Assembly: GCA_038211765.1 (NCBI GenBank) | Contig: JBBQVG010000022.1 | Location: forward strand, 1 to 15,362 | DNA from: Minisyncoccia bacterium | Lineage (GTDB): Bacteria > Patescibacteriota > Minisyncoccia > Phycocordibacterales > PALSA-1337 | Reading direction: 5' to 3' | DNA: 15,362 bases | Shown: in pieces, positions 631-15,362 of the stretch | How positions within the stretch are numbered: the first letter of the stretch is position 1 | Layout: each line of letters starts with the position of its first letter | The notes under the pieces: generated by a model | What the model was told of the DNA's origin: nothing | The model's database searches: none | The model's input: the letters and a program-made list of their open reading frames with translations, nothing else | Made by a program: the position numbers and the translations under genes

Positions 631-1152
631 ATCACTTCGCATTTTTCATTGATCGTATACGAAAAAGCGCACAAGGAGCGAATCGAGAAATGATACGCGC
701 ATGTGCGCTTACGACATGAAGCCGTGCCTGAAGAACTGAAAGAACAATGGTTCCACAGAACCGGGGTTACAGATTCGAAAATGTCTCGAGTCTGTTTTTC
801 GTCAGGATGATTCCTAAGTTCGCGTTGCGCACTTTCCTATAGTAATGACTCTCCCGTTGGGAGGTCTAAGTGACAATGAGAAAGGATGTAACGGAGGGTC
901 TTAGCAACCAAGCGGCGAACTAACAAAAATTGTTCCTCAGAGATGACTTCAATAAAGTGAACGAGAAGCCTACCCTATGTGTGTGAAAGAACGAGTCTGT
1001 TTTTCTCACGACTACCCGTGAGTACCTCGGACAACAAACTGATCTGGAACAATTATAAATGTTCTAAAGGACAGTGTAAAGGACATAACTGTGGATAACT
1101 AGGTCTAATATGTGGATATAGGTCAGATGTTATAAAAGACACTCATAAAAAG

Positions 1153-2643: not shown

Positions 2644-2660
2644 TGTAGTCTACAATAACT

Positions 2661-2688
2661 TTGGCTTTTTTCCTATGTGCGCTACTAT
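2661..2688 (+). promoter_or_regulatory. Candidate sigma70-type promoter for the tRNA-Arg/tRNA-Gly transcript
   Basis: TTGGCT (2661-2666), 16-nt spacer, TACTAT (2683-2688), about 30 nt upstream of tRNA-Arg and divergent from cca. Confidence 0.4.
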
Positions 2689-2717
2689 GATCGGACAGCT
2701 TCATGTTATTTTACATT

Positions 2718-2789
2718 GCGCCCGTGGTGAAATGGATATCACAACAGTCTTCGGAACTGTTGTTGCAGGTTCGAGTCCTGCCGGGCGCA
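2718..2789 (+). tRNA. tRNA-Arg (anticodon UCG)
   Basis: Hand-folded cloverleaf: acceptor GCGCCCG/CGGGCGC, D stem GTGA/TCAC, anticodon arm ACAGT-CTTCGGA-ACTGT, T arm GCAGG-TTCGAGT-CCTGC. Length 72 nt; no encoded CCA. Confidence 0.85.
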
Positions 2790-2853
2790 CAGAATTTTGA
2801 AATTGATGAGGTATAAGCTATACTTACCGAAATTGAAAATTTGAGATGACTCT

Positions 2854-2927
2854 GCGGGCATAGTTTAGTGGTAAAATGCGTCCTTGCCAAGGACGAGATG
2901 GGAGTTCGATTCTCCCTGCCCGCACCA
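2854..2927 (+). tRNA. tRNA-Gly (anticodon GCC), CCA encoded
   Basis: Acceptor GCGGGCA/TGCCCGC, anticodon arm CGTCC-TTGCCAA-GGACG, T arm GGGAG-TTCGATT-CTCCC, discriminator A followed by CCA (2925-2927). Confidence 0.9.
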
Positions 2928-2965
2928 ACATAGGGTTACCGATAGCAAAGCGAAGCTTTGCGTTT

Positions 2966-3078
2966 GAGAATCGAACGCCGGAGCGATGCTGAGTCAGCAG
3001 ACGAGGCCGCGAGGCGGTGGCTAGCCCGAGCCGAACTGGTGAGGTGAGAGGCGAAGCCGATTCTCCCTGCCCGCACCA
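2966..3078 (+). repeat. tRNA-tail element copy A: conserved 90-nt G-rich core (2971-3060) fused to a second copy of the tRNA-Gly(GCC) 3' end
   Basis: 2971-3060 aligns without gaps to 3855-3944 (79/90 identical by my count; perfect run 3009-3044 = 3893-3928). 3058-3078 (CGATTCTCCCTGCCCGCACCA) is an exact repeat of 2907-2927. 2966-2973 (GAGAATCG) is complementary to 3058-3065. Confidence 0.75.
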
Positions 3079-3272
3079 TAGGATAGTTGGGGATAACTCT
3101 GTGAATTGTGTTTATAAAAGACATGAATAAGGGCTAACAATCGTCATTTCTGTTGTCCGAGATGTCCTAAAGATATGTTTCACAAGAAACATTTCACGTG
3201 AAATAAGCCTGTTTTTCGATGTAAATTTGGCATATTATCTCTAATATTCGAGGTTTAACCTCGAAAATCAGT

Positions 3273-3647
3273 ATGCATAATAGACAAAAAGGTAATAATG
3301 GGGAAGATCTTGCATGTACTTTCTTGTCCAAGAAGGGCTTTATTGTTATAGATCGTAATTACTTGAAGAAGTGGGGTGAGCTCGACATCGTGGCCCAGAA
3401 AGACGGAAAGTTACACTTCTTTGAGGTAAAGAGTGTTATGTTTGGGGAAACTGCAGAGGGAAGTCATCGACCTGAGGACAACGTCCACGGATTGAAGGTA
3501 AGAAGTATCCGGAGAATGATCGAAACCTATATTGACGAGAAGAAGATCGCTCCAGAGACAGAATTTTATTTTCATGTACTATGTGTCTTTATGGACGAGC
3601 AAAGACGTAGTGCTCGAGTAAAGTGGATAGAAAACATCATTTTGTGA
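3273..3647 (+). CDS. yraN: YraN family (UPF0102) endonuclease-like protein
   Basis: 124-aa ORF with GEDLACTFLSKKGFIVIDRNY...GELDIVA...FFEVK, the characteristic YraN/PD-(D/E)xK-like pattern. Confidence 0.8.
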   Translation: MHNRQKGNNGEDLACTFLSKKGFIVIDRNYLKKWGELDIVAQKDGKLHFFEVKSVMFGETAEGSHRPEDNVHGLKVRSIRRMIETYIDEKKIAPETEFYFHVLCVFMDEQRRSARVKWIENIIL

Positions 3648-3654
3648 AACTTTG

Positions 3655-3663
3655 TGCTAATAT
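3655..3663 (+). promoter_or_regulatory. Candidate extended -10 element (TGCTAATAT) upstream of tRNA-Pro
   Basis: TGn-TAATAT lies 68 nt upstream of tRNA-Pro. Related TGCTAGTAT (4540-4548, before tRNA-Gly-UCC) and TGCTAGACT (7817-7825) occur in the window. No good -35 element. Confidence 0.35.
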
Positions 3664-3730
3664 GGCACGACACGCTGTCACCTTTGCGACCACGGGACTT
3701 GCCGTAGTGAGTCGCCTAGGAGACCAAAGA

Positions 3731-3803
3731 CGGGGCGTGGTGTAACGGCTAACATGCCTCTTTTGGGAAGAGGTGACTCCGGGTTCGAATCCCGGCGCCC
3801 CGA
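3731..3803 (+). tRNA. tRNA-Pro (anticodon UGG)
   Basis: Acceptor CGGGGCG/CGCCCCG, anticodon arm CCTCT-TTTGGGA-AGAGG, T arm CCGGG-TTCGAAT-CCCGG. Length 73 nt; no encoded CCA. Confidence 0.9.
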
Positions 3804-3848
3804 CAGACATTAGGTAAGCAATAGCAGGTGCCTTGAGGCACGTGCGTC

Positions 3849-4004
3849 CTGGATTCGAACGCCGGAGCCGTATCGAGCCAGCAGGCGAGATGGCGAGGCG
3901 GTGGCTAGCCCGAGCCGAACTGGTGAGGCGAGAGGCGAAGCCGAATCCCGGCGCCCCGACAAATTTTAGATAAGCAATAGCAGGTGCCTTGAGGCACGTG
4001 CGTC
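3849..4004 (+). repeat. tRNA-tail element copy B: conserved core (3855-3944) followed by a second copy of the tRNA-Pro 3' end plus its downstream hairpin
   Basis: 3942-4004 repeats 3786-3848 (63 nt with a few mismatches clustered at 3806-3815), giving a 156-bp period. 3851-3857 (GGATTCG) is complementary to 3942-3948 (CGAATCC). The core is homologous to copy A. Confidence 0.75.
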
Positions 4005-4054
4005 ATGGCAAAGCGATAGAGGCCGAATCATCGGCTGTGTGTTAAAATATTGAG

Positions 4055-4519
4055 ATGAAACAAGTTCTTCATTTTTTCGACAAATTGGAAGACAAGATCA
4101 GGGTGAGTCTCAGTCACCACCCTATCGTCTATACATTTATCGGCGGCATCTCTATTGTGCTGTTCTGGCGCGGTGTATGGCATACGGCGGATATCCTTGC
4201 GGCTCAGGGAGGTTGGCTCGGTTTTTTGTTCTATGAGCCAGTCAATCTCATCATTGTGGTTGTGATACTGCTTGCAACCGGGTTGTTTGTTTCGTACTTT
4301 GTGGGGGATACCATCCTTATAACTGGCCTACGTGGTCAGAAAAAGATAACGGAAAGGACAGAAAAAGAAATAGAGGATGAGGAAAAAGAGTTAGTGTCCA
4401 TTCGGTCGACTATCAAAGACATCAAACACGAAGTTGACGAGATCAGGGATGCAGTAACTCATAGGCAATCAACATCTCATTCAAGCGAGGGGGGACACAC
4501 CAGTAAGGTATCAGGTTAA
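4055..4519 (+). CDS. Hypothetical membrane protein with charged coiled-coil-like C-terminus
   Basis: 154-aa ORF. It has two hydrophobic segments (IVYTFIGGISIVLFW; LIIVVVILLATGLFVSYFVG) followed by a KE-rich tail. No family recognised. Confidence 0.6.
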   Translation: MKQVLHFFDKLEDKIRVSLSHHPIVYTFIGGISIVLFWRGVWHTADILAAQGGWLGFLFYEPVNLIIVVVILLATGLFVSYFVGDTILITGLRGQKKITERTEKEIEDEEKELVSIRSTIKDIKHEVDEIRDAVTHRQSTSHSSEGGHTSKVSG

Positions 4520-4583
4520 TTTTCAAACAGGGGAGTATCTGCTAGTATGGAGCGCACGGCCCAGTGGGGCTATGAATGAGAAG

Positions 4584-4654
4584 GCGGGATTAGTTAAATG
4601 GTATAATAACAGTTTTCCAAACTGTGGTCGGGAGTTCGATTCTCCCATCCCGCA
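4584..4654 (+). tRNA. tRNA-Gly (anticodon UCC)
   Basis: Acceptor GCGGGAT/ATCCCGC, anticodon arm ACAGT-TTTCCAA-ACTGT, T arm GGGAG-TTCGATT-CTCCC. Length 71 nt. Confidence 0.9.
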
Positions 4655-4672
4655 CCGAAACACATTAATTAT

Positions 4673-5224
4673 ATGAAAAGACTTTTTGTAATACATGGGT
4701 GGGGTGGAAGCCCGAACGAACCAATGATCCATTGGTTGGGTGAAAAAGGGCGAGAGTTGGGTTATGAAGTGGCAGTACTAGAGATGCCCAACAGTGCTGT
4801 CCCTACTATAGGTGCGTGGACTGCTCACCTAGATGAGCACGTTATGTATGTTGACGAGAATACAGACTTTATCGGTCACAGCATCGGCTGTCAGGCCATC
4901 CTTCGCTATCTTGCAACTCAAAAAGGATCGAAGGTGGGCAAAGTTGTACTCATCGCTCCATGGATTGAGATTGCAGCACAGGAGACAGCAGAGGAAGAAG
5001 ACATCGCTCGTCCTTGGAAAGAAAACCCTATCGATTTCGTCTCTATTAGGGGTATGGGAAAGGATTTTACTGCGATTTTTTCAGACAATGACGCGGATGT
5101 ACCATTGGAAGCAAACAAAGCTTGGATTGAGAAAAATCTGAATGCCAATATTATTGTTGAGACAGGGAAGGGGCATTTTACCGAAGAGGACGGTGTAGTG
5201 GATTTACCATCGGTGTTTGTGTGA
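4673..5224 (+). CDS. Alpha/beta-fold serine hydrolase (YdeN/RBBP9-like)
   Basis: 183-aa ORF with an N-terminal VIHGWGGSP strand-loop and a GHSIGC nucleophile elbow (GxSxG). Confidence 0.75.
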   Translation: MKRLFVIHGWGGSPNEPMIHWLGEKGRELGYEVAVLEMPNSAVPTIGAWTAHLDEHVMYVDENTDFIGHSIGCQAILRYLATQKGSKVGKVVLIAPWIEIAAQETAEEEDIARPWKENPIDFVSIRGMGKDFTAIFSDNDADVPLEANKAWIEKNLNANIIVETGKGHFTEEDGVVDLPSVFV

Positions 5225-5243
5225 AGACTTGGCTAGCATAAAC

Positions 5244-5295
5244 AAAAAACCGCCAAGTAAGTGATTTTGCTAAATCACACCACGGCGGTCTTTTG
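5244..5295. terminator. Bidirectional intrinsic terminator between the hydrolase gene and hup
   Basis: A-run, then ACCGCC (5249-5254) pairing with GGCGGT (5284-5289). An inner stem GTGATTT/AAATCAC is enclosed, and a T-run follows. Confidence 0.6.
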
Positions 5296-5358
5296 ATTGA
5301 GATACAACGCGTTAGTTGCAGAGAAGTGGTCGATAGGGCACTTCTGTGCAGTAAAACG

Positions 5359-5631
5359 TTATTTTACGGCGTCCTTGAGGGCCTTTGCGGCGCGGAACTT
5401 CGGAACCTTCATGGCAGGGACCTTGATGGCCTCACCTGTACGAGGGTTGCGAGCTTCACGGGCTGCACGCTGTTTTACTGAGAAGATACCGAGACCTGCG
5501 ATAGAAACCTCATCACCCTTCTTCAAGGAGTCGATGATGCTGTTAATCATAGTCTCGACCGCCTGCTCAGCCTGAACTTTCGTTCCGCCGAGAACTCCAT
5601 GAACTGCGTCAACAATACTTGCTTTGTTCAT
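5359..5631 (-). CDS. hup: HU family DNA-binding protein
   Basis: 90-aa ORF with MNKASIVDAV...GDEVSIAGLGIFSVKQRAAREARNPRTGEAIKVPA, the canonical HU/IHF arm sequence. Confidence 0.95.
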   Translation of the reverse strand: MNKASIVDAVHGVLGGTKVQAEQAVETMINSIIDSLKKGDEVSIAGLGIFSVKQRAAREARNPRTGEAIKVPAMKVPKFRAAKALKDAVK

Positions 5632-5839
5632 TTGTGTGTAATTAGTACTAATAATCTAGGCTCTAATACTGGTCTCGGTCCCTCAACCTCGATTCCGAGG
5701 TCTCGGGATCAAGTTGCGAACCATGAGGATAATTATATAGTAAGCCATTTTAAGCACAATAGGGCTGTAAAGATTGACAACATTTCTTTTTTCATGGTAT
5801 CTTTAGGCCATTCTATTAATTAATACAATTTTACGACCT

Positions 5840-6097
5840 ATGGCAAAAGAAAATTCTGCGTTTATGAAACCTATGACTATAAGTTCGGATCTGGCCGCAG
5901 TTGTCGGCGCAGGCCCTATGCCTCGATCTGAGGTGGTCAAGGCTCTCTGGGTATATATCAAGAAGCACAATCTCCAGGATCCCAAGAACAAGCGCAATAT
6001 CAACGCCGATGAAAATCTCAAGAAGGTTTTTGATGGCAAGGCAGTGGTCAATATGTTCGAAATGACCAAGCTGGTGTCAAAGCATCTGACGAATTAA
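5840..6097 (+). CDS. SWIB/MDM2 domain protein
   Basis: 85-aa ORF. PMPRSEVVKALWVYIKKHNLQDPKNKRNINADENLKKVF matches the SWIB domain pattern. Confidence 0.85.
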   Translation: MAKENSAFMKPMTISSDLAAVVGAGPMPRSEVVKALWVYIKKHNLQDPKNKRNINADENLKKVFDGKAVVNMFEMTKLVSKHLTN

Positions 6098-6118
6098 GAA
6101 AGATTTAGTTCGCTTACA

Positions 6119-6148
6119 AAAATACCGAAGGAATTCGGTATTTTTTGT
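6119..6148 (+). terminator. Intrinsic terminator after the SWIB gene
   Basis: ATACCGAA (6122-6129), GGAA loop, TTCGGTAT (6134-6141), then a T-run. Confidence 0.75.
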
Positions 6149-6283
6149 TGGGGCTCTATTTCCTTGTAAGTCTTGGTACCTTCAAGATCATTTCACCGAT
6201 TGCGTCACGGTAATATTGACTGTAGCTACAGAGACACGGATAGTCCATTCCATACCATTATTCTTCCGATGATTGAGGATTTT

Positions 6284-6313
6284 AAGCCGCCTTTTGGCTT
6301 GGGCGGTTTTTTG
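6284..6313 (+). terminator. Second terminator-like hairpin plus T-run upstream of the TrmB-family gene
   Basis: AAGCCGCC...GGCGG stem followed by TTTTTTGTTTT. It sits 135 nt after the previous terminator with no ORF in between. Confidence 0.5.
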
Positions 6314-6342
6314 TTTTCGCCTCTTTGTGATAATCTGTACTC

Positions 6343-7101
6343 ATGTTAGAAAAATATCTCCAAGACATCGGCCTGAGTGAAAAAGAATCCGTCATCTACA
6401 TTTCCCTCCTGGCCGTAGACAATAGTTCTGTACTCGATCTGTCCAAGAAAACCAAGCTCAATCGTTCTACCACCTACGTTATTCTCGAATCTCTGGCTAA
6501 AAAAGGCTTGGTGACAGAGACGACGGTTGGTAAAAAGACTCATTACCAAGCAGAACCCCCAGAAAGACTCGAGACTTATGTTGAACAACGCAAAATCTTG
6601 CTTGAGGAACAATCAAAAAAACTCAAAGACATTATCCCTCAGATAAAAAGTGTACAGAGGGAGGGTGGTGAGAAGCCGATTGTGAAGTATTTTGAGGGAA
6701 AAGATGGTTTGATAAGCCTACATGAAGAATTTTTTCTTGGTCAAAATGAAGATGCGATAAGCTATCTAATATATTCAAAGGATTTAGTTGATGAAATATT
6801 TTCTGCGACTGAAAGGGAGAAATACAGAAACATGCGATTGGGTAAAAATATTAAGTCAAAAGTTCTTTACACCTACCTAAATGGAACAATTCCTACAAGT
6901 ATTGACGGAGAGAGAGTAAAAATTGATGGTACCAAATATCCTATACTTTGTGATATCTCAGTCTGTGAGGATAGAGTCAAAATTGCAATTCTAGGTAAAA
7001 AGCTTTCGGGTATTTTCATTAAAAGTAAAGAATTTGCTGAAACATTCAGGAGTATCTTTAATATTGGGTTTGACCAAATGCAGAAGGGGGCCCAGTCGTA
7101 A
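6343..7101 (+). CDS. TrmB family (winged-helix) transcriptional regulator
   Basis: 252-aa ORF. The N-terminal LQDIGLSEKESVIYISLL...LSKKTKLNRSTTYVILESLAKKGLV is the TrmB HTH signature. TGTGATAAT (extended -10) lies 9 nt before the ATG, suggesting a near-leaderless mRNA. Confidence 0.8.
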   Translation: MLEKYLQDIGLSEKESVIYISLLAVDNSSVLDLSKKTKLNRSTTYVILESLAKKGLVTETTVGKKTHYQAEPPERLETYVEQRKILLEEQSKKLKDIIPQIKSVQREGGEKPIVKYFEGKDGLISLHEEFFLGQNEDAISYLIYSKDLVDEIFSATEREKYRNMRLGKNIKSKVLYTYLNGTIPTSIDGERVKIDGTKYPILCDISVCEDRVKIAILGKKLSGIFIKSKEFAETFRSIFNIGFDQMQKGAQS

Positions 7102-7797
7102 TACGACCAGGCCCCGAACTAACCGAATCGGAACTTCAGATCGTTGTAGCCTCTTGGCTTTTTTTGCTTATCAACAATGAATGAACTTTGATCTAGACGA
7201 TCTCCGAAGTCCGACGTGCATCGCATTTGCGACCCGTACGATCCAAGCAATTAGGATCGATTATTTGCTTGATAGAGACCCATATCCTGAGTCAACATCT
7301 TAGCTTTCTTTTGACTTAATCACACATACTAGCTTTCCTTTCCTTACTTCTCCCAACTTTGAAGGGCACAACCGAATGGTTTCAATACCGTCTTCTAGTG
7401 CCTTATGAGGTCCACCAGAAGACGGTACTTACTTGCATCTAGTCGCTCATAAGTCCCTCCTTATTTCTGGTTGAGAGCCATGAATGGCACATTTTAAGGC
7501 CAATATCTGCCACCACCCACTTCTGAAACAAGTTTAGCAGACCAAAATCAAAATGTCAAGTTTTTATACCATTTTAGGCAAATAAGTAAGGTTTCAGGCC
7601 ATAAAACCATGAATATAGGCATATTTAGTTATTTTATCTGTTTTTTATTGTTTACAGAAAATTTTAATTAGAAATTATATATTTATATTGTCATAATATT
7701 TTATTAAATGTTATTATTTAATACCTTATTTATGATGAGAATAACCATATTTATAGGCATTATTTTGATACTAAAGGTTATATAATGTTATTTATAC

Positions 7798-7825
7798 TTG
7801 ACAGATTTATGGAATGTGCTAGACT
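7798..7825 (+). promoter_or_regulatory. Strong sigma70-type promoter with extended -10
   Basis: Perfect TTGACA (7798-7803), 16-nt spacer, TGc-TAGACT (7817-7825). A ~240-bp very AT-rich tract (UP-like) lies immediately upstream. Confidence 0.6.
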
Positions 7826-7831
7826 CTGCAA

Positions 7832-8697
7832 CAGAACAAAAGATGTGTCCAGGGAAGGCACTGCTATCCCGCTTCGATCGGAGCGCCATGTCTCAATAAA
7901 AATGACGGGCGCTCGGAAAGGAGCGGGATGAGGAACCTTAAAAATGCACATCATGAGTGATGGCACGACCATGACCCACGCCGAGTGGCTGGCATGGTTG
8001 CGCGGGGAGTAGTAGTACTCCCTATGCTGTGACTGCAGTAATGTAGCGCACGGAGTATGGGTATCAGCTTGGCAAAAGAAATGATACAGCAGACCCACTG
8101 CGACAAGGGAAAGGTATCCATACCTACACAAATGGAGATGCACGCAGAGTTAACAACGCAAATAATTCTGCGTGCATATAGGGGGGAACTCATGTTCCCC
8201 ACTTTATCAGGTTCGTTTTGGAAATGAGCCTGCAAAGTGTCCGTCAGTTAGAAAAAGTAGTTCTTTACAATAGTGTCTGCACTATCTTGCATCTAAAGTG
8301 ATGCGTAGATGCGAGATAGTGCAGATACTTCGCAGGTATCCGAGCACGCTGTGTGACCCGGTACAACCCGGCGTATAGTAACCTCTTTTTCACATGGATG
8401 AGAGGTAAGGGCGCACGGAGTTCCCGTGACCACCCGAAAAGTAGTGAGTGCGAATGAAAGCTTCAGCTTTCATTGGCCCGGAAAGCTCAGCATTGGTGCT
8501 GAGTAACCGTTTGTTTCGCCACATCGCGCTTCTACCAGGAAGCGGAGGTTGTGGGAAACATCTCATTGCATGGGTGCTGTGTACACCCGAGACATGCTGG
8601 AGCATGTTCTCACTGCGAGTTTTTCGGTTCGCTCATTCAACCCAAATGAGCATCTTATTGAATCAATGACATGAAGTCGTTGATTCAAAGGAATTTG
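7832..8697 (+). ncRNA. Candidate large structured non-coding RNA / highly structured leader (family not recognised)
   Basis: No credible ORF. There is a dense series of perfect local helices. Examples: 7866-7873/7922-7929 enclosing 7881-7887/7908-7914; 7968-7973/7993-7998; 8005-8011/8016-8022; 8138-8148/8167-8177; 8183-8189/8194-8200; 8273-8295/8306-8328; 8381-8386/8401-8406; 8454-8461/8466-8473; 8486-8492/8497-8503; 8527-8532/8539-8544; 8592-8597/8602-8607; 8658-8670/8676-8688. Boundaries are approximate. Confidence 0.5.
8273..8328 (+). other. 23-bp hairpin immediately after the first GTTCTTTACA box (8260-8269)
   Basis: 8273-8295 pairs with 8306-8328 (21 Watson-Crick plus 2 G-U pairs) around a 10-nt loop. 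Confidence 0.7.
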
Positions 8698-8708
8698 GTT
8701 CTTTACAT

Positions 8709-9014
8709 ATGAAAACTTTACTATTGTTCGTCTTCGCGGCATTTGTGCTCGTCGGATGTGTTCCGGAGCAAAGCGCACCCCGATCGCTTACCTATTTTCC
8801 AACTAATAATTGGCAGGTAGTGAGTGTGACGGAAGGTGAGGTGGTGGTCGAAACAAAATCGACCAACTTGCCCCTGCGATACAGGGTAGTCCGAGCTACT
8901 CCTGTTACGCCACTGACCAACGGTCAGTTTGCGAGGGTTGAGCTCACTTTGAAACGCCATCTGTACAACCCTGACGAGGTTGCCACAGCTCGAGCGTTTC
9001 CGGCGGACCACTGA
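8709..9014 (+). CDS. Small putative lipoprotein
   Basis: 101-aa ORF. MKTLLLFVFAAFVLVGC is a signal peptide with an L-V-G-C lipobox. The ATG is directly preceded by a GTTCTTTACA box (8698-8707). Confidence 0.6.
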   Translation: MKTLLLFVFAAFVLVGCVPEQSAPRSLTYFPTNNWQVVSVTEGEVVVETKSTNLPLRYRVVRATPVTPLTNGQFARVELTLKRHLYNPDEVATARAFPADH

Positions 9015-9110
9015 GGCGAGACCATGGATGTCTATAAACTCCCGTAATACTCTGGGGAAGCTCCAGGGCGCCTAACAAGCGGAAACTGTTGGGATGATGC
9101 AAATCGTCTC

Positions 9111-9163
9111 TCTGTTCTCGAGATGAGTATCTCGACTGACGAGTCTGAAAAGACGAAAACAGA
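9111..9163 (+). ncRNA. Hammerhead ribozyme, type III (HHR-1), predicted cleavage after C9117
   Basis: Stem III TCTGTT (9111-9116)/AACAGA (9158-9163), then C17. Stem I TCGAGA-TGAGTA-TCTCGA (9118-9135). Core CUGACGA (9136-9142). Stem II GTCT-GAAA-AGAC (9143-9154). Core GAAA (9155-9158). Confidence 0.85.
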
Positions 9164-9190
9164 AACGTTCTTTGAGTTAATAAAGCATTT

Positions 9191-9241
9191 CACCTCCGCT
9201 TTTTCTATTTCATTATTTTTGGAATAAAGAAAGCGGAGGTG
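9191..9241 (+). promoter_or_regulatory. Hairpin sequestering the Shine-Dalgarno sequence of the 9247 ORF
   Basis: CACCTCCGCTTT (9191-9202) pairs with AAAGCGGAGGTG (9230-9241). GGAGG (9235-9239) lies in the 3' arm, 7 nt before the ATG at 9247. Confidence 0.6.
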
Positions 9242-9246
9242 TAAAA

Positions 9247-9429
9247 ATGCCATTCTGCCGTCCCAAAGGGTCGGAGCTGGTTGCGATCATTGGTCGTAGC
9301 CTTCTCAGTAGTTGGGTGCACTCAAGCGTTGGCAGGCTGAAATCTGTCTTGGTAACCCCAGTAAAGAAGAAATTCTTTACACTTGAGAGTCGCAACTGCA
9401 AGCCGTATGAAGAGTACCTCTTCATTTGA
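9247..9429 (+). CDS. Hypothetical small protein (60 aa)
   Basis: The ORF is preceded by a strong GGAGGTG SD at optimal spacing. No family recognised, and an internal hairpin is present, so coding status is uncertain. Confidence 0.4.
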   Translation: MPFCRPKGSELVAIIGRSLLSSWVHSSVGRLKSVLVTPVKKKFFTLESRNCKPYEEYLFI

Positions 9430-9537
9430 ATCATTAGCAAATATCGATGGTAGTCCATCGGAGATGATTCACGGAAGGGAGGTGTTGGGGTAATTCAAAA
9501 CCCTGACACCTCCTATCATCCTTATTTAGGAAAATTT

Positions 9538-9696
9538 ATGGGGATGGGAGCAAAGTCTTTCAAAACCACTGGAGGGTCAGGGGGCAAGAAAGGTCACTCC
9601 AACATGGTTCATTGGACGTTCACTGAGGAAATCAAAGTGATCGCCAAGAAGGCACGCAGGATGGCCGATCGAGCTCTCTCCCGTCCGCGGGAGTAG
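9538..9696 (+). CDS. Hypothetical small basic protein (52 aa, below the ORF-track cutoff)
   Basis: My translation: MGMGAKSFKTTGGSGGKKGHSNMVHWTFTEEIKVIAKKARRMADRALSRPRE, ending at TAG. AGGA lies 6 nt upstream of the ATG. Confidence 0.3.
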   Translation: MGMGAKSFKTTGGSGGKKGHSNMVHWTFTEEIKVIAKKARRMADRALSRPRE

Positions 9697-9972
9697 GAAG
9701 CAATAACACCTGTAAAATGGTTGCCACAAAATCCGGTGGTGTAAATCAAGGTAAAAAGTTTTGTCCCCATTTCGTAAAATGGAGAGCCTAGAGGAAGCAG
9801 AGCCTCACGCAGTCGGAGCCGTATGGCTAGTATAGAGGTAACAGAGATCGACACTCTATTGCGTCCGAAGACTTGGTTGGCTAGTCTCCAACCCTAAGAT
9901 CGAGCACGGCCCAGTCGTGGGATACTCTAGTGGAAGTAACTAAAATCCACTCTTGATGACATTGTCATCAAG

Positions 9973-10024
9973 TTCTGTCTCAGAATGTAATTCTGACTGA
10001 TGAGCTCAAAAGAGCGAAACAGAA
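9973..10024 (+). ncRNA. Hammerhead ribozyme, type III (HHR-3 by order of discovery, second in position), predicted cleavage after C9979
   Basis: Stem III TTCTGT (9973-9978)/ACAGAA (10019-10024), then C17. Stem I TCAGAA(T)-GTA-(A)TTCTGA (9980-9996). Core CUGAUGA (9997-10003). Stem II GCTC-AAAA-GAGC (10004-10015). Core GAAA (10016-10019). Confidence 0.85.
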
Positions 10025-10035
10025 GTTCTTTACAA

Positions 10036-10091
10036 TCATGTTCATAGTATTCTGAATATTTATATAGGTACTTAGAATACTATGAATATGA
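10036..10091 (+). promoter_or_regulatory. ~20-bp hairpin burying the first two in-frame ATGs of the 10082 ORF
   Basis: 10036-10055 pairs with 10072-10091, with a 13-bp perfect core TTCATAGTATTCT/AGAATACTATGAA. The ATGs at 10082 and 10088 lie in the 3' arm. Confidence 0.6.
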
Positions 10092-10258
10092 AAATGAAAG
10101 TACTGTTTATCAGTATCGCCGGGCTCTGGGCAGTTGCTGCTTGGGCGAGTTACGAGCCCCACGTTCTTTTGATGAACGTGGCGAGTGTGTTGGGATTGCA
10201 GCTAGGTATCATTTATTTGGTACTTGAGCGGCGGCACACGAGGCGCGTGACCAAGTGA
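10082..10258 (+). CDS. Small hydrophobic protein, two predicted transmembrane helices (58 aa, below the ORF-track cutoff)
   Basis: My translation: MNMKMKVLFISIAGLWAVAAWASYEPHVLLMNVASVLGLQLGIIYLVLERRHTRRVTK, ending at TGA. It has two ~19-aa hydrophobic stretches and a basic tail. Confidence 0.45.
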   Translation: MNMKMKVLFISIAGLWAVAAWASYEPHVLLMNVASVLGLQLGIIYLVLERRHTRRVTK

Positions 10259-10298
10259 GGGACTTGAATACCCCTTCTCCATCCAGTGAGAAACTGGA

Positions 10299-10349
10299 TT
10301 GCTCTCGAGATGTGTGTCTCGACTGATGAGTCCGAAAGGACGAAAGCAG
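10299..10349 (+). ncRNA. Hammerhead ribozyme, type III (HHR-2), predicted cleavage after C10304
   Basis: Stem III TTGCT (10299-10303)/AGCAG (10345-10349), then C17. Stem I TCGAGA-TGTGTG-TCTCGA (10305-10322). Core CUGAUGA (10323-10329). Stem II GTCC-GAAA-GGAC (10330-10341). Core GAAA (10342-10345). Confidence 0.85.
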
Positions 10350-10364
10350 AGTGTTCTTCGTAAA

Positions 10365-10426
10365 TTGATGTTCATAATAATCTTATTTTTGAATATCATC
10401 AGAAATTAGATTATTATGAACATCAA
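10365..10426 (+). promoter_or_regulatory. 19-bp perfect hairpin burying the start codon of the GNAT gene
   Basis: TTGATGTTCATAATAATCT (10365-10383) pairs with AGATTATTATGAACATCAA (10408-10426) around a 24-nt loop. The ATG at 10416 is inside the 3' arm. Confidence 0.65.
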
Positions 10427-10844
10427 AATCATCTCTGCATCTGTAGCTACTCACCAGCTATTCAGTCAACACGCATACATCAAAGCTGATCTCTGGTTCC
10501 CAACTCTGTTTGGAGGGGATCGTATCTCATGTTGTGATGAGGCTGTGGTCGTTGAAGTCAGTGGTACAATCGTCGCTTTGGCGACTATCGCTCCAGAAGG
10601 AGAAATGACCTCAGGTGTTCCCACTATTGTTGGTCTATATACAGTACGTGGTCACCGGAAGTCCGGATACGCACGCCTGGCTTTCGAAGCGGCGGTTAAG
10701 AGGGGAATCGAACGTGGGTTTACCAAGATCCGCGTTGACACGCTCTCTAAGGGAGCTTTGAGAATCACGAAAACGATGCCAATGGAACTGTCACAAGTTC
10801 TAGAGGTTGGCCTCCAGATCCTTCTTTGTGGATTCCTGGAATAA
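10416..10844 (+). CDS. GNAT family N-acetyltransferase
   Basis: 142-aa ORF. VRGHRKSGYARLAFEAAVKRGIERG fits the GNAT motif A (R/Q-x-x-G-x-G/A) acetyl-CoA binding segment. Confidence 0.7.
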   Translation: MNIKIISASVATHQLFSQHAYIKADLWFPTLFGGDRISCCDEAVVVEVSGTIVALATIAPEGEMTSGVPTIVGLYTVRGHRKSGYARLAFEAAVKRGIERGFTKIRVDTLSKGALRITKTMPMELSQVLEVGLQILLCGFLE

Positions 10845-10955
10845 TTTTGCGAAAGCAAGAGGTGCTCACTACCTATAACAAAGTGTGAGCTGTTCGGCGA
10901 AACTGGTTGGTCACCAGTGTGCCGCTTCAGTGAAAAAAGCGGGAGGAGGATGTGC

Positions 10956-11147
10956 ATGAAAAAGCACTCTACTTCTCGGAAGAATGTTGAGCCCGTTACC
11001 GACGCCATCGTGGATAAGGGAATGAAGCTTCTCAAAAATCCGAGAGTGCCTAAAAAGATCAAGCGGCAATTGGTTGAAGCTGCATTTCACGGAGTTCAAA
11101 CCGGTGAAGTCAGTTTCTCCCAGCTCTGCAAGATCTCGAGGGCATGA
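10956..11147 (+). CDS. Hypothetical small protein (63 aa from the ATG at 10956), possibly a truncated HTH protein
   Basis: GGGAGGAGG SD (10941-10949) lies 6 nt before the ATG. Sequence: MKKHSTSRKNVEPVTDAIVDKGMKLLKNPRVPKKIKRQLVEAAFHGVQTGEVSFSQLCKISRA. It ends where a helix-turn-helix would normally continue. Confidence 0.4.
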   Translation: MKKHSTSRKNVEPVTDAIVDKGMKLLKNPRVPKKIKRQLVEAAFHGVQTGEVSFSQLCKISRA

Positions 11148-11297
11148 CTGATGGACAGACATCCGAAGGATGCGCAGGGCTCGGCAGATAAGAGTCCTAA
11201 CCTTCGATTCAGAAGCGCAATTGTTGTCACCTTTGTAAAGCGTGAGCCTCGTATGCAGTACGTTGGGAAGAGTGACTTCCTGAGAACAAATAGTCAC

Positions 11298-11340
11298 GAA
11301 AAAACCGCACTCCATTATTGACGTGCGGTTTCATCATTTT
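11298..11340. terminator. Bidirectional intrinsic terminator (end of the + strand block and of rny)
   Basis: A-run, AAACCGCAC (11302-11310) pairing with GTGCGGTTT (11323-11331), followed by T-rich sequence. Confidence 0.7.
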
Positions 11341-11351
11341 TATACTTATGT

Positions 11352-12884
11352 TTACCTCGCAAACTCCAACGCTCTTGTCTCTCGTATGACCATAACTTTG
11401 ATCTCGCCGGGATATTTGAGGTCTTTCTCGATCTTGGTGGCGATGTCGCGGGCTAGGTTCTTGGCTTCGAGGTCGCCGAGCTCCTCTGGCTTCACGAAGA
11501 TGCGGATCTCACGGCCTGCTTGGAGGGCGTATGACTTTTCTATACCAGGGAATGAGTTGGCCAGAGCCTCGAGATCACCTAGACGTTTGAGGTAGTTTTC
11601 GATATTGTCACGACGAGCACCAGGACGGGCACCAGAGATGGCGTCTGCTGTCTGGACGATGCGGGACTCGATGGTTTCGTACGGATATTCTTCATGGTGA
11701 GCTTGCATGGCCTTGATGATATCTTCAGGGGCACCGAACTTTTGGAGGATGCGGCGACCGATCTCTACGTGAGTGCCGCCGACTTCGTGGTCGAGGGCCT
11801 TGCCGAGGTCGTGGAGGAGGGCACCGGCCTTGGCGACCTGAACGTTGGCACCGAGCTCCTCGGCGATCATACCGGCGATGTGTGACATCTCAATAGAGTG
11901 TTGGAGAACGTTTTGTCCATAACTTGTGCGGAAGTGGAGGCGCCCCAAGATGAGGAGAATACGTGGATCAAGACCGATGACTCCGCACTCGAAGGCAGCA
12001 GCCTCACCCTTTTCTTTGATGGTTTTATTTATATCCTGCTTGGCTTTTTCCACAGTAGACTCGATCTTGGCAGGTTGGATGCGACCATCCTTGATGAGTT
12101 CACGAAGTGCAGTGGCAGCGGTATGGCGACGTACTGGGTCAAATGAAGAAATAGTGATGGCACCAGGTGTGTCGTCGATCATTACCTCCACACCGGTCAT
12201 ACGTTCGAAGGCCTTGATGTTGCGACCTTCCTTGCCGATGACCTTGCCTTTGACATCGTCCGATGGGATCTCGACTATAGTTGACATCACATCGGAATTC
12301 ACTGCCGTGGCTAGGCGCTGTATGGATATAGCTAGGATGTCTTTGGCTCTCTTCTCCAACATATCTTCCCCCTGAGTTTCGAGCTTGTTCATGCGTACAA
12401 GGAAATCCTGTTCGGATTGCTTCTCGATGAGTTTCATAAGCTCGCCCTTGGCTTCGTCTGCGGACATATGAGAAATCTTCTCGAGAGCCTTTGCGCGATC
12501 TCCTTCGAGCTTGTCAGCTTGTTCGCGGATGGCCTTGATCTCAGCCACGCGCTGTTTGATCATTTCTACTTCTCTATCTATGTCTGACTGTCGCTTATCC
12601 AAAAGGTCCTCCTTCTTTATCAGGCGGTCCTCAGCATGTTTGTGCTTTTCTTCTTTCTCCTTCAATTCTCTCTTTACTTCTTCCAATCTTTCCTTGGCGT
12701 TTTGTTCGGCTTCGGTGGTGATCTTCTTGGCTTCTTCTTTTGCGGCAAGAAGCATGGCCTTGATCTCGAGCTCCATGGAACCTTTCTTTCCCAAGGAGAT
12801 GATCAGGCGCAAGTAGTACCCGATGGCTATGCCAACTAGGCCAGCGATGGCCAGGAAGACGGCTATTAATTTTAATGAATACAT
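11352..12884 (-). CDS. rny: Ribonuclease Y
   Basis: 510-aa ORF with an N-terminal membrane anchor, a long coiled coil, a KH domain (GKVIGKEGRNIKAFE) and an HD domain (LLHDLGKA...HH). Confidence 0.95.
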   Translation of the reverse strand: MYSLKLIAVFLAIAGLVGIAIGYYLRLIISLGKKGSMELEIKAMLLAAKEEAKKITTEAEQNAKERLEEVKRELKEKEEKHKHAEDRLIKKEDLLDKRQSDIDREVEMIKQRVAEIKAIREQADKLEGDRAKALEKISHMSADEAKGELMKLIEKQSEQDFLVRMNKLETQGEDMLEKRAKDILAISIQRLATAVNSDVMSTIVEIPSDDVKGKVIGKEGRNIKAFERMTGVEVMIDDTPGAITISSFDPVRRHTAATALRELIKDGRIQPAKIESTVEKAKQDINKTIKEKGEAAAFECGVIGLDPRILLILGRLHFRTSYGQNVLQHSIEMSHIAGMIAEELGANVQVAKAGALLHDLGKALDHEVGGTHVEIGRRILQKFGAPEDIIKAMQAHHEEYPYETIESRIVQTADAISGARPGARRDNIENYLKRLGDLEALANSFPGIEKSYALQAGREIRIFVKPEELGDLEAKNLARDIATKIEKDLKYPGEIKVMVIRETRALEFAR

Positions 12885-13111
12885 ATGCGGAATGATCCGC
12901 CTCTAGGGACTAGGGTGATAGTAACGTATGAGATGTTGCGAGCTTCAGAGTCGAGAAATCGGAGAAAACAGCCAAGGATGGTAGGGTAAATCGGAAGTGC
13001 TGAAGAAGTAAGGTAATCATAAGTTGGTGTCACGCAGGTCTGCAAGGCGAAATCAATAATTTAAATTTGGTAACACTTGTAATATACAATAAATGAGGGT
13101 TATTTGTCTAC

Positions 13112-13309
13112 TTACCAAATAATTGATGATGAGTGCCGACGCGGTGTAACAAGAAATCCTTCGTATTCATGTTTGAGCTTATGGTTGTTGAGAAGTGGAT
13201 CAAATTCATTAAGTGTAAAAATCCTTATACGTTCATTAACTTTTTCACAGATCTCCTTTTGGAGCCTCTTCCAATCTTTTGTGAATAGTGATGACCAATG
13301 AATTATCAT
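13112..13309 (-). CDS. RelE/ParE-superfamily type II toxin (short, atypical C-terminus)
   Basis: 65-aa ORF. FTKDWKRLQKE...RIRIF..NEFDPLLNNHKLKHEYEGF resembles RelE/YafQ-like toxins. It lies 17 nt downstream of an antitoxin-like gene. Confidence 0.5.
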   Translation of the reverse strand: MIIHWSSLFTKDWKRLQKEICEKVNERIRIFTLNEFDPLLNNHKLKHEYEGFLVTPRRHSSSIIW

Positions 13310-13326
13310 AAAGTAGGTAGGACATA

Positions 13327-13611
13327 TTAAGAGTTTAGGGCAGCAATAAGTTCGTCCACCGAATGAGCCACTGGTAATTTTCCCTCCCTGTATTCTTTTT
13401 CTCCTTTTAATAAGGACGCAATTGTTTTCTTGTTTAGTACGTATTCTTCTTCTGTAGTCAGGCTCACCCCTTTATTACGCACAAACTGGCGAAGAAGGGC
13501 ATTGACGAGCGTGCCGAGAGGCAACCCGATCTGTTCGGCGGTTTTCTGGGCGGCCTGCTTGAGATTCTTGTCGATTTTGACTGTGAGTAAGGTTTTAGTA
13601 TTTGTAGTCAT
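13327..13611 (-). CDS. RelB/DinJ-like (ribbon-helix-helix) antitoxin
   Basis: TKTLLTVKIDKNLKQAAQKTAEQIGLPLGTLVNALLRQFV is an RHH/DinJ pattern. I prefer the ATG at 13611 (MTTNTK...) over the ORF-track start at 13659. Confidence 0.6.
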   Translation of the reverse strand: MTTNTKTLLTVKIDKNLKQAAQKTAEQIGLPLGTLVNALLRQFVRNKGVSLTTEEEYVLNKKTIASLLKGEKEYREGKLPVAHSVDELIAALNS

Positions 13612-13671
13612 ATACCCAAGTATATACTTCGGTATGATGGTGTCAATAAAAATCAACATACGTCAGGATCA

Positions 13672-14700
13672 ATGTCTACTGGTAGGTTTCGTAATGAAGC
13701 ATACAATTGTGGCATGGATGAAAAGGGTAAAAATATATTATTGTACGCATCACCTGATGGGGCACTCAAGTTGGAGGTGTCGATTGATGGCGAGACGGTT
13801 TGGCTGTCACAAAAGCAGATGGCGGAGCTTTTTGATTGCAGTGTCTTTAATATCAATGTGCATTTAAAGAATGTGTATAAAGAGGGCGAATTAGTGGAAA
13901 GTCGAACTATTGAGGAATCCTCAATAGTTCAAAAAGAAGGAGGGCGGACTGTTTCTCGAAGTACTATGTTTTATAACTTAGACGCCATTATTTCCGTCGG
14001 ATACCGTATCAATTCCATAAGAGGCACACAATTTCGCATCTGGGCCACAAAAAAGCTGAAAGAGTACATAGTCAAAGGCTTTGTCCTCGATGACGAACGG
14101 CTGGCTCAGGGCAAGAAATCAGATTACTTTGATGAGCTTCTCGAGCGAATCCGTGGTATCCGCGCCAGCGAACGCAATTTTTATCAGAAGATTACTGATA
14201 TCTATGCCACAAGTGTGGATTACAACAAGAATATAGAGGACACCCGGAAATTCTTTGCAGGAGTGCAGAACAAGATTCACTATGCAGTTCATGGCAAGAC
14301 TGCAGCAGAAATAATTGATTCTCGAGCTGATGCAAAGAAAAAGTATATGGGACTGACCAATTTCAAAGGGAAACTCATTAAACAATCCGATATTTCCATC
14401 GCCAAGAATTATTTGAATGAAAAGGAATTGAAACAACTTAACCTGATAACCACGCTCTATCTCGACTTTGCAGAATTGCAGGCAAGCAACGAACGTCCGA
14501 TGACTATGAAGGAGTGGGTCAGTAAACTGGATGATTTCCTAAAGTTGAGTGAAAAGAAGGTCTTGAAAGGTGTTGGTACGATGAGTAAAAGCGTTGCGGA
14601 CAAGAAAGCGCACGCAGAATTTGAGAAGTACCGCAAAGAGAAGGATAAAAAATATGCTTCAGATTTTGACAGGCAGATGAGGAAGTATGTGAAGAAGTAA
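13672..14700 (+). CDS. rhuM: RhuM family (virulence-associated) protein
   Basis: LYASPDGALKLEVSIDGETVWLSQKQMAELF...YNLDAIISVGYRINSIRGTQFRIWATKKLKEYIVKGFVLDDERL matches the RhuM family. The true start may be the ATG at 13714 (MDEKGK...). Confidence 0.8.
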   Translation: MSTGRFRNEAYNCGMDEKGKNILLYASPDGALKLEVSIDGETVWLSQKQMAELFDCSVFNINVHLKNVYKEGELVESRTIEESSIVQKEGGRTVSRSTMFYNLDAIISVGYRINSIRGTQFRIWATKKLKEYIVKGFVLDDERLAQGKKSDYFDELLERIRGIRASERNFYQKITDIYATSVDYNKNIEDTRKFFAGVQNKIHYAVHGKTAAEIIDSRADAKKKYMGLTNFKGKLIKQSDISIAKNYLNEKELKQLNLITTLYLDFAELQASNERPMTMKEWVSKLDDFLKLSEKKVLKGVGTMSKSVADKKAHAEFEKYRKEKDKKYASDFDRQMRKYVKK

Positions 14701-14759
14701 CTAGTAATCGGGCAAATAAAAAAGGCAACCGTTGGATGTGGTCACCATTTAATTGCGAA

Positions 14760-15080
14760 CTAGAACTTTCTTCTGACGAGACAAAGAAGGGCTTCTTCTT
14801 GAGGGGGAATATCATCGGCCCTTCCTTTGGGATGAGTCCAGTAGTGCCCTGGTGTGAAATTTAGTGACCCTTCCCCGACTATCTGCTCGAGCTCCGTGAA
14901 TGTTGGAAGCCGTCCTCCGTCATGGTTTAAAACAACCTCAAACAAGTGTTCACTTTTGACGACTCCCATGTGAAATGTTTCCAATGGCAATGGTCCAATT
15001 TTATTCATACTGTTCCTTTCTACATCAACAAGGGTTCCTTTCGTTTGCCAAAAATTACCATTTAGGGTAGATTGTGTCAA
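14760..15080 (-). CDS. Hypothetical protein; weak resemblance to the DUF1566-type RLPT..EL motif
   Basis: 106-aa ORF. An alternative start at 15008 is preceded by [18 protein letters not shown] is only a weak family hint. Confidence 0.4.
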
Positions 15081-15095
15081 TCAAACCAAACCACC

Positions 15096-15362
15096 ATGCT
15101 TATACCAACAGTCATCGAAAAGTCATCATTCGGCGAGCGCGCGTACGACATCTATTCACGCCTTCTTCGCGACAACATTGTTTTTCTCGGCGGGCCTATA
15201 GATGACCACACGGCCAACCTTATCATTGCTCAACTCCTTTTCTTGCAATCAGAAGACTCGAAGAAAGATATTTCACTCTACGTCAACTCTCCTGGCGGTT
15301 CGGTTTCTTCTACTTTGGCCATCATCGATACCATGCAACACATCAAGAACGATGTTTCGACA
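15096..15362 (+). CDS. clpP: ATP-dependent Clp protease proteolytic subunit, 3' end cut by window edge
   Basis: My translation: [72 protein letters not shown]... This is the canonical ClpP N-terminal region including the active-site Ser context (NSPGGSV). Confidence 0.95.

Follow-up and report, generated by a model that had tools for sequence, protein, structure and literature searches.

The DNA examined here, referred to as the window, is a stretch of 15,362 nucleotides (positions 1 to 15,362, forward strand) of contig JBBQVG010000022.1 in the Minisyncoccia bacterium assembly GCA_038211765.1. It contains three copies of an arrangement in which a small hairpin (P0), a type III hammerhead ribozyme, an 11-nt box beginning with GTTCTT and a long hairpin follow one another at the start of an open reading frame (ORF). 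The gene content of the window comprises a CCA-adding enzyme, YraN, a TrmB-type regulator, RNase Y and RhuM, together with four tRNAs. A phage origin is ruled out by this chromosomal gene content and by a megablast search against a phage collection, which gave no match. In a set of species-representative genomes, the 80 closest RNase Y loci all belong to metagenome-assembled genomes of Patescibacteria, although their labels vary (Paceibacterota, Taylorbacteria, "Saccharibacteria"); the window is a Patescibacteria chromosome. The modules sit in an ORF-poor island at approximately 7.3-10.9 kb, which reads toward the 3' end of the RNase Y gene (Table 1).

Table 1. Predicted features of the island in order of position. 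Match counts of the boxes refer to the boxA consensus GYTCTTTAANA.
Feature	Position	Strand	Description
Promoter	7798-7825	+	Sigma-70-like, TTGACA-16-TAGACT; consensus match only
Fourth boxA-like box	8260-8270	+	GTTCTTTACAA; 10/11; followed by hairpin 8272-8329; no recognised ribozyme
Hairpin	8272-8329	+	24 bp; follows box 8260-8270; no recognised ribozyme
Fifth boxA-like box	8698-8708	+	GTTCTTTACAT; 9/11; immediately 5' of ATG 8709
Lipoprotein-like ORF	8709-9014	+	101 aa
P0-1	9091-9110	+	8-bp hairpin, GCAA loop; abuts hammerhead 1
Hammerhead 1	9111-9163	+	Type III; predicted cut 3' of C9117; Rfam Hammerhead_3 at 9116-9158, 29.1 bits, E=0.01
boxA-like element 1	9167-9177	+	GTTCTTTGAGT; 9/11
Long hairpin 1	9185-9250	+	-34.2 kcal/mol, z -7.2; 3' arm holds Shine-Dalgarno GGAGG 9235-9239 and ATG 9247 in pairing
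60-aa ORF	9247-9429	+	Putative coding; well-spaced Shine-Dalgarno sequence, no family match
P0-2	9952-9972	+	Perfect hairpin, 9-10 bp; abuts hammerhead 2
Hammerhead 2	9973-10024	+	Type III; predicted cut 3' of C9979; Rfam Hammerhead_3 at 9972-10025, 44.5 bits, E=4e-7
boxA-like element 2	10025-10035	+	GTTCTTTACAA; 10/11
Long hairpin 2	10036-10091	+	-27.8 kcal/mol; 20 bp, 1x1 internal loop, 5 bp; covers ATG 10082 and ATG 10088
58-aa ORF	10082-10258	+	Predicted small membrane peptide, from two hydrophobic stretches in the translation
P0-3	10282-10298	+	6-bp hairpin TCCAGT/ACTGGA; abuts hammerhead 3
Hammerhead 3	10299-10349	+	Type III; predicted cut 3' of C10304; Rfam Hammerhead_3 at 10303-10345, 31.3 bits
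boxA-like element 3	10353-10363	+	GTTCTTCGTAA; 8/11, weakest copy
Long hairpin 3	10365-10426	+	-31.2 kcal/mol; 19 bp, 1x1 internal loop, 8 bp; covers ATG 10416
GNAT acetyltransferase gene	10416-10844	+	142 aa; PF00583, E=3.7e-7

Ribozymes, boxes and hairpins of the window

All three ribozymes carry the canonical core CUGANGA...GAAA with the A15.1-U16.1 pair and a C, a non-G nucleotide, at the cleavage position. Complete folds were called by our own descriptor scan for type III hammerheads, in which stems I/II/III of copies 1, 2 and 3 measure 7/4/6, 7/4/6 and 7/4/5 bp, respectively; copies 1 and 3 are 86% identical. In these folds loops close stems I and II, and stem III is the open one. Owing to the type III topology the predicted cut lies at the 5' edge and leaves the ribozyme body attached to the RNA downstream. 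The Rfam models were run at relaxed thresholds, and none of the three copies reaches the gathering score of RF00008 (48.5 bits). The same is true of every member of the subfamily scored with Rfam, at 29-47.5 bits (the window and loci L105, L113, L124, L125, L130, L158 and L160, where L marks a locus collected for comparison). This is mainly because stems II and III are short, the gathering score being a curation cut-off and not a structural feature. As a result, standard annotation overlooks the whole subfamily.

The motif GTTCTT begins 3, 0 and 3 nt past stem III of hammerheads 1, 2 and 3 (at 9167, 10025 and 10353), in agreement with a preliminary description of this DNA that had placed it 0-3 nt after each ribozyme. 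The hexamer per se is not enriched in the window, with 16 copies observed against 11.5 expected. Nevertheless, with nine plus-strand copies per 15.4 kb, the occurrence of three within 4 nt of three ribozymes is not due to chance. The box is more than an anonymous spacer: it matches the consensus of boxA, the RNA site at which NusB and S10 (NusE) nucleate a processive antitermination complex. The published consensus, GYTCTTTAANA, is gamma-proteobacterial (PMC5725501).

Folding bears out the claim that the long hairpins, of 56-66 nt, bury the start signals of the next ORF in all three copies. Their z-scores range from -7.2 to -8.2, and none of 200 shuffles is equally stable. The accompanying claim that the hairpin sequences are mutually unrelated does not stand, since hairpins 2 and 3 share 73% identity over 30 nt and are, judging from this identity, paralogous. 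Two further boxes, at 8260 (with a hairpin) and at 8698, and the P0 hairpin before each hammerhead had been overlooked.

Relatives in metagenomes

Metagenome contigs, many of which derive from the Hainich wells, were scanned with a pattern that runs from loop I through the 3' strand of stem I and the core into the first bases of stem II. It used neither box nor hairpin and is thus blind to the sequence after the ribozyme. It matched 98 metagenome stretches, and among the fetched loci 90 of 102 pattern matches have a complete hammerhead fold; 41 more hammerheads lie in the same loci outside the search pattern, and 121 non-redundant hammerheads are left after removal of duplicates. Two of the Patescibacteria genomes among the RNase Y loci (L014 and L061) bear four hammerheads of the window subfamily. 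Viral contigs of IMG/VR gave no match to the subfamily pattern, and a search of viral contigs for a hammerhead plus GTTCTT gave two chance matches, one of them coding and the other in the stem III loop of a type I hammerhead.

Across 98 aligned relatives the core columns are invariant, and compensatory change is found in all three stems (14 of 17 pairs varied on both sides, 306 cells), with 99.4% of the cells paired. At least two hammerheads occur on 33 of 91 locus-strands and at least three on 11. Within a locus they share a single orientation, except in L014 and L174, and tandem copies are spaced by 0.2-2.5 kb. The genes that follow are diverse and include housekeeping functions: periplasmic binding proteins, methyltransferases, GNATs, FtsK and ribosomal protein S19. 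A literature search on hammerheads in Patescibacteria or bacteria of the Candidate Phyla Radiation gave no result. Two further copies, at about 1440-1486 of L118 and at 1437-1491 of L130, have the hammerhead core CCGAUGAG, in which U4 is changed to C, and are probably impaired by the look of their core; both keep a perfect boxA-like box, and the L118 copy also has a 23-bp hairpin.

The most conserved feature downstream of the ribozymes is the box, with the consensus GTTCTTT(G/A)AAA, which begins 1-3 nt after stem III. In percent, the family logo reads G89 T69 T80 C87 T76 T97 T88 R A80 A81 A78, and an A-rich stretch comes after it. A match at 9 or more of the 11 positions is present at 58% of sites within approximately 37 nt downstream of the ribozyme, compared to 2% in the 40 nt upstream and about 1% in random windows. 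The box is also present in 27 of the 41 hammerheads lying outside the search pattern. It is unpaired in minimum-free-energy folds, and where a hairpin follows, a median of 5 nt separates the two (interquartile range 3-11).

Published work on boxA allows this motif to be judged position by position. Mutating C4 and T6 abolishes the function of the suhB boxA (PMC5725501); in the family logo these positions stand at 87% and 97%, respectively. According to the crystal-structure paper on NusB-NusE-BoxA, the purine position tolerates A or G, and NusB-NusE has a site for double-stranded RNA that directly adjoins the one for BoxA (PMC3177189). Furthermore, the functional boxA of the Legionella pneumophila CRISPR leader, as given in a passage of PMC7862264, is GTTCTTTAAAA, which in that form is identical to the consensus of the hammerhead family. 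From the sequence match, C4 and T6 included, and from its position in the leader, the box looks like a boxA-type antitermination signal, and its RNA form GUUCUUUGAAA is a candidate NusB-S10 target. A full-text literature search for the box motif returned primer sequences only. An integron attC or other recombination site was rejected, as GTTYYYY in the box is unlike GTTRRRY, and inspection finds no integrase in the window.

The box is not confined to hammerheads. It follows sigma-70-like promoters in L162 (TTGACA-17-TATACT), L125, L163 and L074, and immediately precedes start codons in L056 and at window position 8698, in each case without a hammerhead. In L130, the boxA-like GTACCTTAAAT comes a few nt after a twister-P1-like candidate at 2193-2266 (40.3 bits against a gathering score of 67.2), and a structured RNA that we term class A and describe below comes next; boxA may follow more than one class of ribozyme. 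Since boxes stand after promoters and after the twister-like candidate where there is no hammerhead, the box belongs to the transcript leader and not to the ribozyme. Box and hairpin also stand together where no canonical hammerhead is present, namely in L133, L109, L162 and L056 and at position 8260 of the window; thus, the hairpin associates with boxA and not with the ribozyme.

The place usually taken by the hammerhead, just before a perfect boxA, is occupied at several sites by a conserved element of approximately 70 nt, AAATCATCTAAAAACC..CAGCAACTAT..GCAGG..CAAGGARGAAACA. It is present in L113 (minus strand, about 9820-9890), in L117 and twice in L124 (about 130-198 and 2430-2501), has no Rfam match, and is possibly a further element for processing.

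A hairpin of -25 kcal/mol or lower lies within the first 140 nt after 40% of the hammerheads, against 5% of random windows and 7% of the 5' regions of other ORFs on the same contigs. Hence the combination of ribozyme, box and long hairpin first described in the window does recur, the box at 58% and the hairpin at 40% of the 121 hammerheads. The family hairpins differ in sequence and are uniform in size, with 20-31 bp (median 24) in 49-69 nt. Their usual build is a lower stem of 11-21 bp, a small symmetric internal loop and an upper stem of 5-11 bp. In their dimensions they resemble RNase III processing hairpins of the T7 early, lambda N-leader or rRNA type, which are largely regular double-stranded RNA of at least 20 bp, or about two helical turns. 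Processing or shielding is the most likely role of the hairpin of approximately 24 bp, and our best guess, by analogy, is that it may be an RNase III-type substrate.

On the other side of the ribozyme, a hairpin of at least 8 bp ends 0-2 nt away in 46% of 112 family members, compared to 11% of random sites. The loops of many P0 hairpins are alike, ..TTAACCATAAAA.. or ..ACCNTAAAA, on stems that differ (L099, L105, L113, L120, L121, L124, L129 and L131). This common pattern hints at a specific contact or binding site.

A proposed function and its alternatives

The computation itself shows the hammerhead fold, a boxA-type motif close behind it, a hairpin of restricted size and the iteration of these parts along ordinary operons. 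Building on these, we favour, with moderate confidence, the reading that P0, the type III hammerhead, boxA and an optional hairpin of approximately 24 bp constitute an intercistronic RNA punctuation module of Patescibacteria, which would cut the transcript and reload Nus factors. Each hammerhead would cut the polycistronic RNA at its own 5' edge during transcription. The released upstream RNA would end in P0 plus about 6 nt with a 2',3'-cyclic phosphate, P0 acting as a protective terminal hairpin, and the downstream RNA, bound to the polymerase, would begin with the 5'-OH ribozyme body. The Nus complex acts via an RNA loop from boxA to the elongating polymerase (PMC5725501); a cut would therefore disconnect any earlier boxA from the polymerase. 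With a fresh boxA right after the ribozyme, NusB and S10 (together with NusA and NusG) could reload, and this reloading would keep elongation processive over untranslated, hairpin-rich RNA, where the threat would be Rho or hairpin-dependent pausing and termination. Stem III on one side of the box and the long hairpin on the other occupy the places that boxB-like double-stranded RNA takes beside boxA in rrn and lambda nut sites. Cleavage of the hairpin, presumably by RNase III, would remove ribozyme and boxA. If the 3' arm holds the Shine-Dalgarno sequence or the AUG, which is the case for every copy in the window, the cistron would stay untranslated until the stem is cut or unwound, in the manner of the lambda leader with nutL, an RNase III hairpin and N.

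More tentatively, self-cleavage and processive antitermination may be mechanistically coupled, a proposal that we regard as possible rather than probable. A boxA would then come at once after every co-transcriptional cut in these bacteria and hand the Nus complex over to the RNA that the polymerase still carries, with stem III as the boxB-like element and the hairpin as an RNase III site. A later cut by RNase III in the hairpin would strip ribozyme and boxA from the message, giving a short-leader or leaderless mRNA where the hairpin buries the start. If this coupling holds, the module would amount to a complete, modular and RNA-encoded punctuation of operons that cuts, reloads, shields and unmasks.

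Several points weigh against the punctuation reading. Copy 3 of the window fits boxA at only 8 of 11 positions, a good box is missing in approximately 20-40% of family members, and the long hairpin is missing in 60%. The identity of boxA rests on an 11-nt motif and its context, which makes Nus binding a prediction, and site-specific self-cleavage of the window ribozymes is likewise predicted rather than measured. The pairing statistics of the stems come from hammerheads that the descriptor had chosen for pairing, and the comparison of hairpin strands given below was run on hairpins picked on the sense strand. The 1.8 Mb of collected loci hold no rRNA gene whose leader boxA could be compared. 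A tblastn search of the same 1.8 Mb for nusB, rho and rnc found nothing credible with E. coli queries, each locus covering about 2% of a genome; a Rho-like match in L074 proved spurious. Finally, one prediction of the anti-Rho role failed, as untranslated leaders are no shorter after ribozymes that lack boxA (median 93 versus 74 nt, p=0.2).

The strongest alternative, which we nevertheless consider unlikely, is that the module is a RiboJ-like insulator serving mainly translational gating, the hairpins hiding the next start and the box being an uncharacterised spacer. RiboJ joins the hammerhead of satellite tobacco ringspot virus (sTRSV) to a 23-nt hairpin; this ribozyme is of type III, is cut at the 5' edge and stays on the downstream RNA, and the hairpin, placed upstream of the ribosome binding site, exposes that site. 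The likeness drawn to RiboJ in the preliminary description is accurate for the topology and fails for access to the ribosome binding site, which is sequestered by the window hairpins of approximately 24 bp and exposed by the short one of RiboJ, where there is also no boxA. In favour of gating, all three window hairpins bury the Shine-Dalgarno sequence, the AUG or both, and the AUG also lies in the 3' arm in L130, L174, L084 (twice) and L151, where the 5' arms vary between genes yet stay complementary to each gene's own first codons. Small upstream ORFs in the 5' arms (ATGTTCATA) were dismissed in this connection, since they arise by complementarity to the opening codons of the gene that follows, CATG being self-complementary. 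Across the family, however, an ORF call is available for 44 modules with a hairpin, and the ATG falls within the 3' arm or at its foot in just 11 of them, 6-30 nt past the hairpin in 6 and more than 30 nt past it in 22. Moreover, 60% of modules have no long hairpin at all, many hairpins lead into further conserved, structured RNA free of ORFs, and the box matches a specific known signal. Start-codon burial is thus the function of a subset, about 25% of the hairpin-bearing modules, and not the defining and conserved feature for which it had been taken.

It is less probable still that the box is a processing signal for an endonuclease (RNase Y or RNase E/G, guided by the hairpin) which would remove the ribozyme from the mature RNA. 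As a single-stranded, AU-rich stretch a few nt before a stable hairpin, the box resembles RNase Y sites described in Firmicutes; the RNase Y gene adjoins the island, perhaps by coincidence. Yet the sequence of the box agrees with boxA at all informative positions, among them the critical C4 and U6. The box is also present where no hairpin follows, and we know of no sequence-specific RNase that needs this 11-mer.

We give very little credence to the idea that the box is an accessory of the ribozyme, making a tertiary contact or acting as an alternative pairing partner that switches between cleavage and ligation. Its fixed distance of 1-3 nt from stem III would suit such a role, and by inspection the 3' half of stem II is purine-rich and could in principle base-pair with UUCUUU. 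Against this stand the boxes without hammerheads, after promoters, after the twister-like candidate and before start codons. In addition, mutual information between box and hammerhead positions is weak and scattered, with no run of covarying pairs and no coherent covariation.

Equally improbable is a role at the level of DNA, with the box as a promoter -35 element or start site and the inverted repeats as operators, cruciforms, terminators or repeats like miniature inverted-repeat transposable elements. TTGAAA within the box does resemble a -35 hexamer, and the hairpins are near-perfect palindromes, but no -10-like element is conserved at any fixed distance after the box: logo positions 18-41 and 43-70 stay below 0.15 bit, with a single column of 0.23 bit at position 42. 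The window hairpins are not followed by a T-run. Furthermore, pairing is kept between loci while the hairpin sequences vary, G-U pairs make up 12% of the hairpin pairs, and the ribozyme strand is the more stable one in 46 of 50 hairpins. These G-U pairs and the asymmetry of the strands point to an RNA rather than a DNA function.

Hammerhead cleavage leaves a 5'-OH and a 2',3'-cyclic phosphate, the ends that a ligase needs. Least probable of all is nonetheless that hammerhead-flanked units are excised and circularised in the manner of retrozymes or viroid-like RNAs, with box and hairpin as features of the circular RNA: the arrays are tandem, of one orientation and spaced by 0.2-2.5 kb, and in 56% of neighbours, versus 29% of random pairs, the second ribozyme has a 5' strand able to pair with the 3' strand of its predecessor, but this excess is what paralogy within a genome leads one to expect, both neighbouring pairs in the window are incompatible (a single bp in register), the genes within the units are ordinary ones, and passages of Perreault et al. 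report that circular products of clustered hammerheads were sought and none found (PMC3088659).

The punctuation module that we favour shares its parts with several known systems. In passages of Perreault et al. (2011), clustered hammerheads of prophages lie in one orientation and flank single genes or short blocks, and are proposed to convert long transcripts into gene-length RNAs, with in vitro cleavage observed for three arrangements (PMC3088659). Thus, the earlier statement that such a system had not been described is correct for a natural hammerhead-boxA module, which is absent from the literature searched, and incorrect for iterated hammerheads flanking genes, which these passages already report. 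The prophage clusters, as described there, are mostly of type II or mixed, whereas here a single type III subfamily stands in chromosomal, Patescibacteria-like operons; the passages mention no abutting 5' hairpin, boxA or size-restricted 3' hairpin.

The nut-like site of rRNA leaders (boxB-boxA-boxC with an RNase III stem) has the same box, GYTCTTTAANA against GTTCTTTRAAA, and is also alike in having a structure directly 5' of boxA, a strand of a long helix a few nt after it and a long untranslated RNA (PMC10250234). Unlike in rRNA leaders, the 5' structure here is a predicted self-cleaving ribozyme, the helix is a local hairpin of approximately 24 bp and not a long-range stem, the set is repeated within protein-coding operons, and no GU-rich element resembling boxC is seen near the box in the logo. 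The lambda nutL/N leader has the same order of boxA, hairpin, structured leader and start site, and RNase III cleavage of the N leader relieves translational repression. In contrast to lambda, no N protein and no boxB consensus are present here, the hairpin is far longer than boxB, and the part played by RNase III is one that we infer. Nus factors at boxA can themselves repress translation via the RNA loop, and boxA is found outside rRNA in the suhB and rpsJ leaders (Baniulyte 2017, PMC5725501) and in the leaders of CRISPR arrays (Stringer 2020, as cited in a passage of PMC7862264). In those cases a single boxA follows the promoter of a transcription unit, whereas here there is one for each ribozyme, iterated along the operon. 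The sole combination of a hammerhead with boxA in the literature searched is an engineered ribozyme in an rRNA construct (PMC10250234).

We believe that what is new is the fixed set of P0, type III hammerhead, boxA and hairpin of approximately 24 bp, its iteration in chromosomal operons and its abundance in Patescibacteria; the parts are known. The function of bacterial hammerheads, a long-standing question, hereby gains a concrete and testable context, in that a family of more than 100 members from the ordinary operons of this uncultivated phylum ties type III hammerheads to a well-understood second signal, boxA, at a fixed distance. Should the coupling of the two be real, self-cleavage and elongation control would have been designed together, and the biology of boxA and Nus factors would extend from rRNA, CRISPR arrays and a few mRNAs into protein-coding operons. 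It would also offer a blueprint for synthetic multi-gene constructs that combine a ribozyme insulator, an antitermination signal and a removable translational lock.

Genes and further RNA elements

The island transcript likely starts at the predicted promoter at 7798-7825, the best of several sigma-70-like matches in a strongly AT-rich region at 7560-8260. Between this promoter and the first boxA-like box lie approximately 430 nt without a credible ORF. Between the 60-aa ORF and a 52-aa ORF (9538-9696) there is a hairpin, GGAGGTGTTGGGGT/ACCCTGACACCTCC, at 9478-9513, in which GGAGG again pairs with CCTCC; it has neither ribozyme nor box.

Two sequences upstream of hammerheads recur in other loci. 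An identical 26 nt, GGAGAGCCTAGAGGAAGCAGAGCCTC, is shared by window positions 9781-9806 and by 1382-1407 of L130, in both cases free of ORFs and upstream of a hammerhead, which suggests another conserved non-coding element at 9700-9950 of the window. Before hammerhead 1, at 9052-9110, a hairpin CTGGNGAA..CTCCAG is followed by GGCGCCTNNNNAGCGGAAACTNNTGG and then by P0. This motif is also found upstream of hammerheads in L014 (minus strand), L089 (approximately 2300-2362), L136 and L128, and may represent a 3' element belonging to the unit upstream.

Structured RNA crowds many intergenic regions of Patescibacteria. The class A RNA, which occupies 8260 to approximately 8700 of the window, is conserved, structured, free of ORFs and approximately 300 nt or longer, with no match to an Rfam family. 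Its elements are, in order, boxA, the hairpin of approximately 24 bp (with CUGCAC...GUGCAG near the base), a small hairpin, (A/G)AGCACG and more helices. Further copies are found in L056 (minus strand, from approximately 5850 downwards, a syntenic copy), L160, L095, L158, L154, L089, L169, L139 and L130 (approximately 2290-2400). Hammerheads flank the class A RNA in some contigs, and at times it forms tandem repeats.

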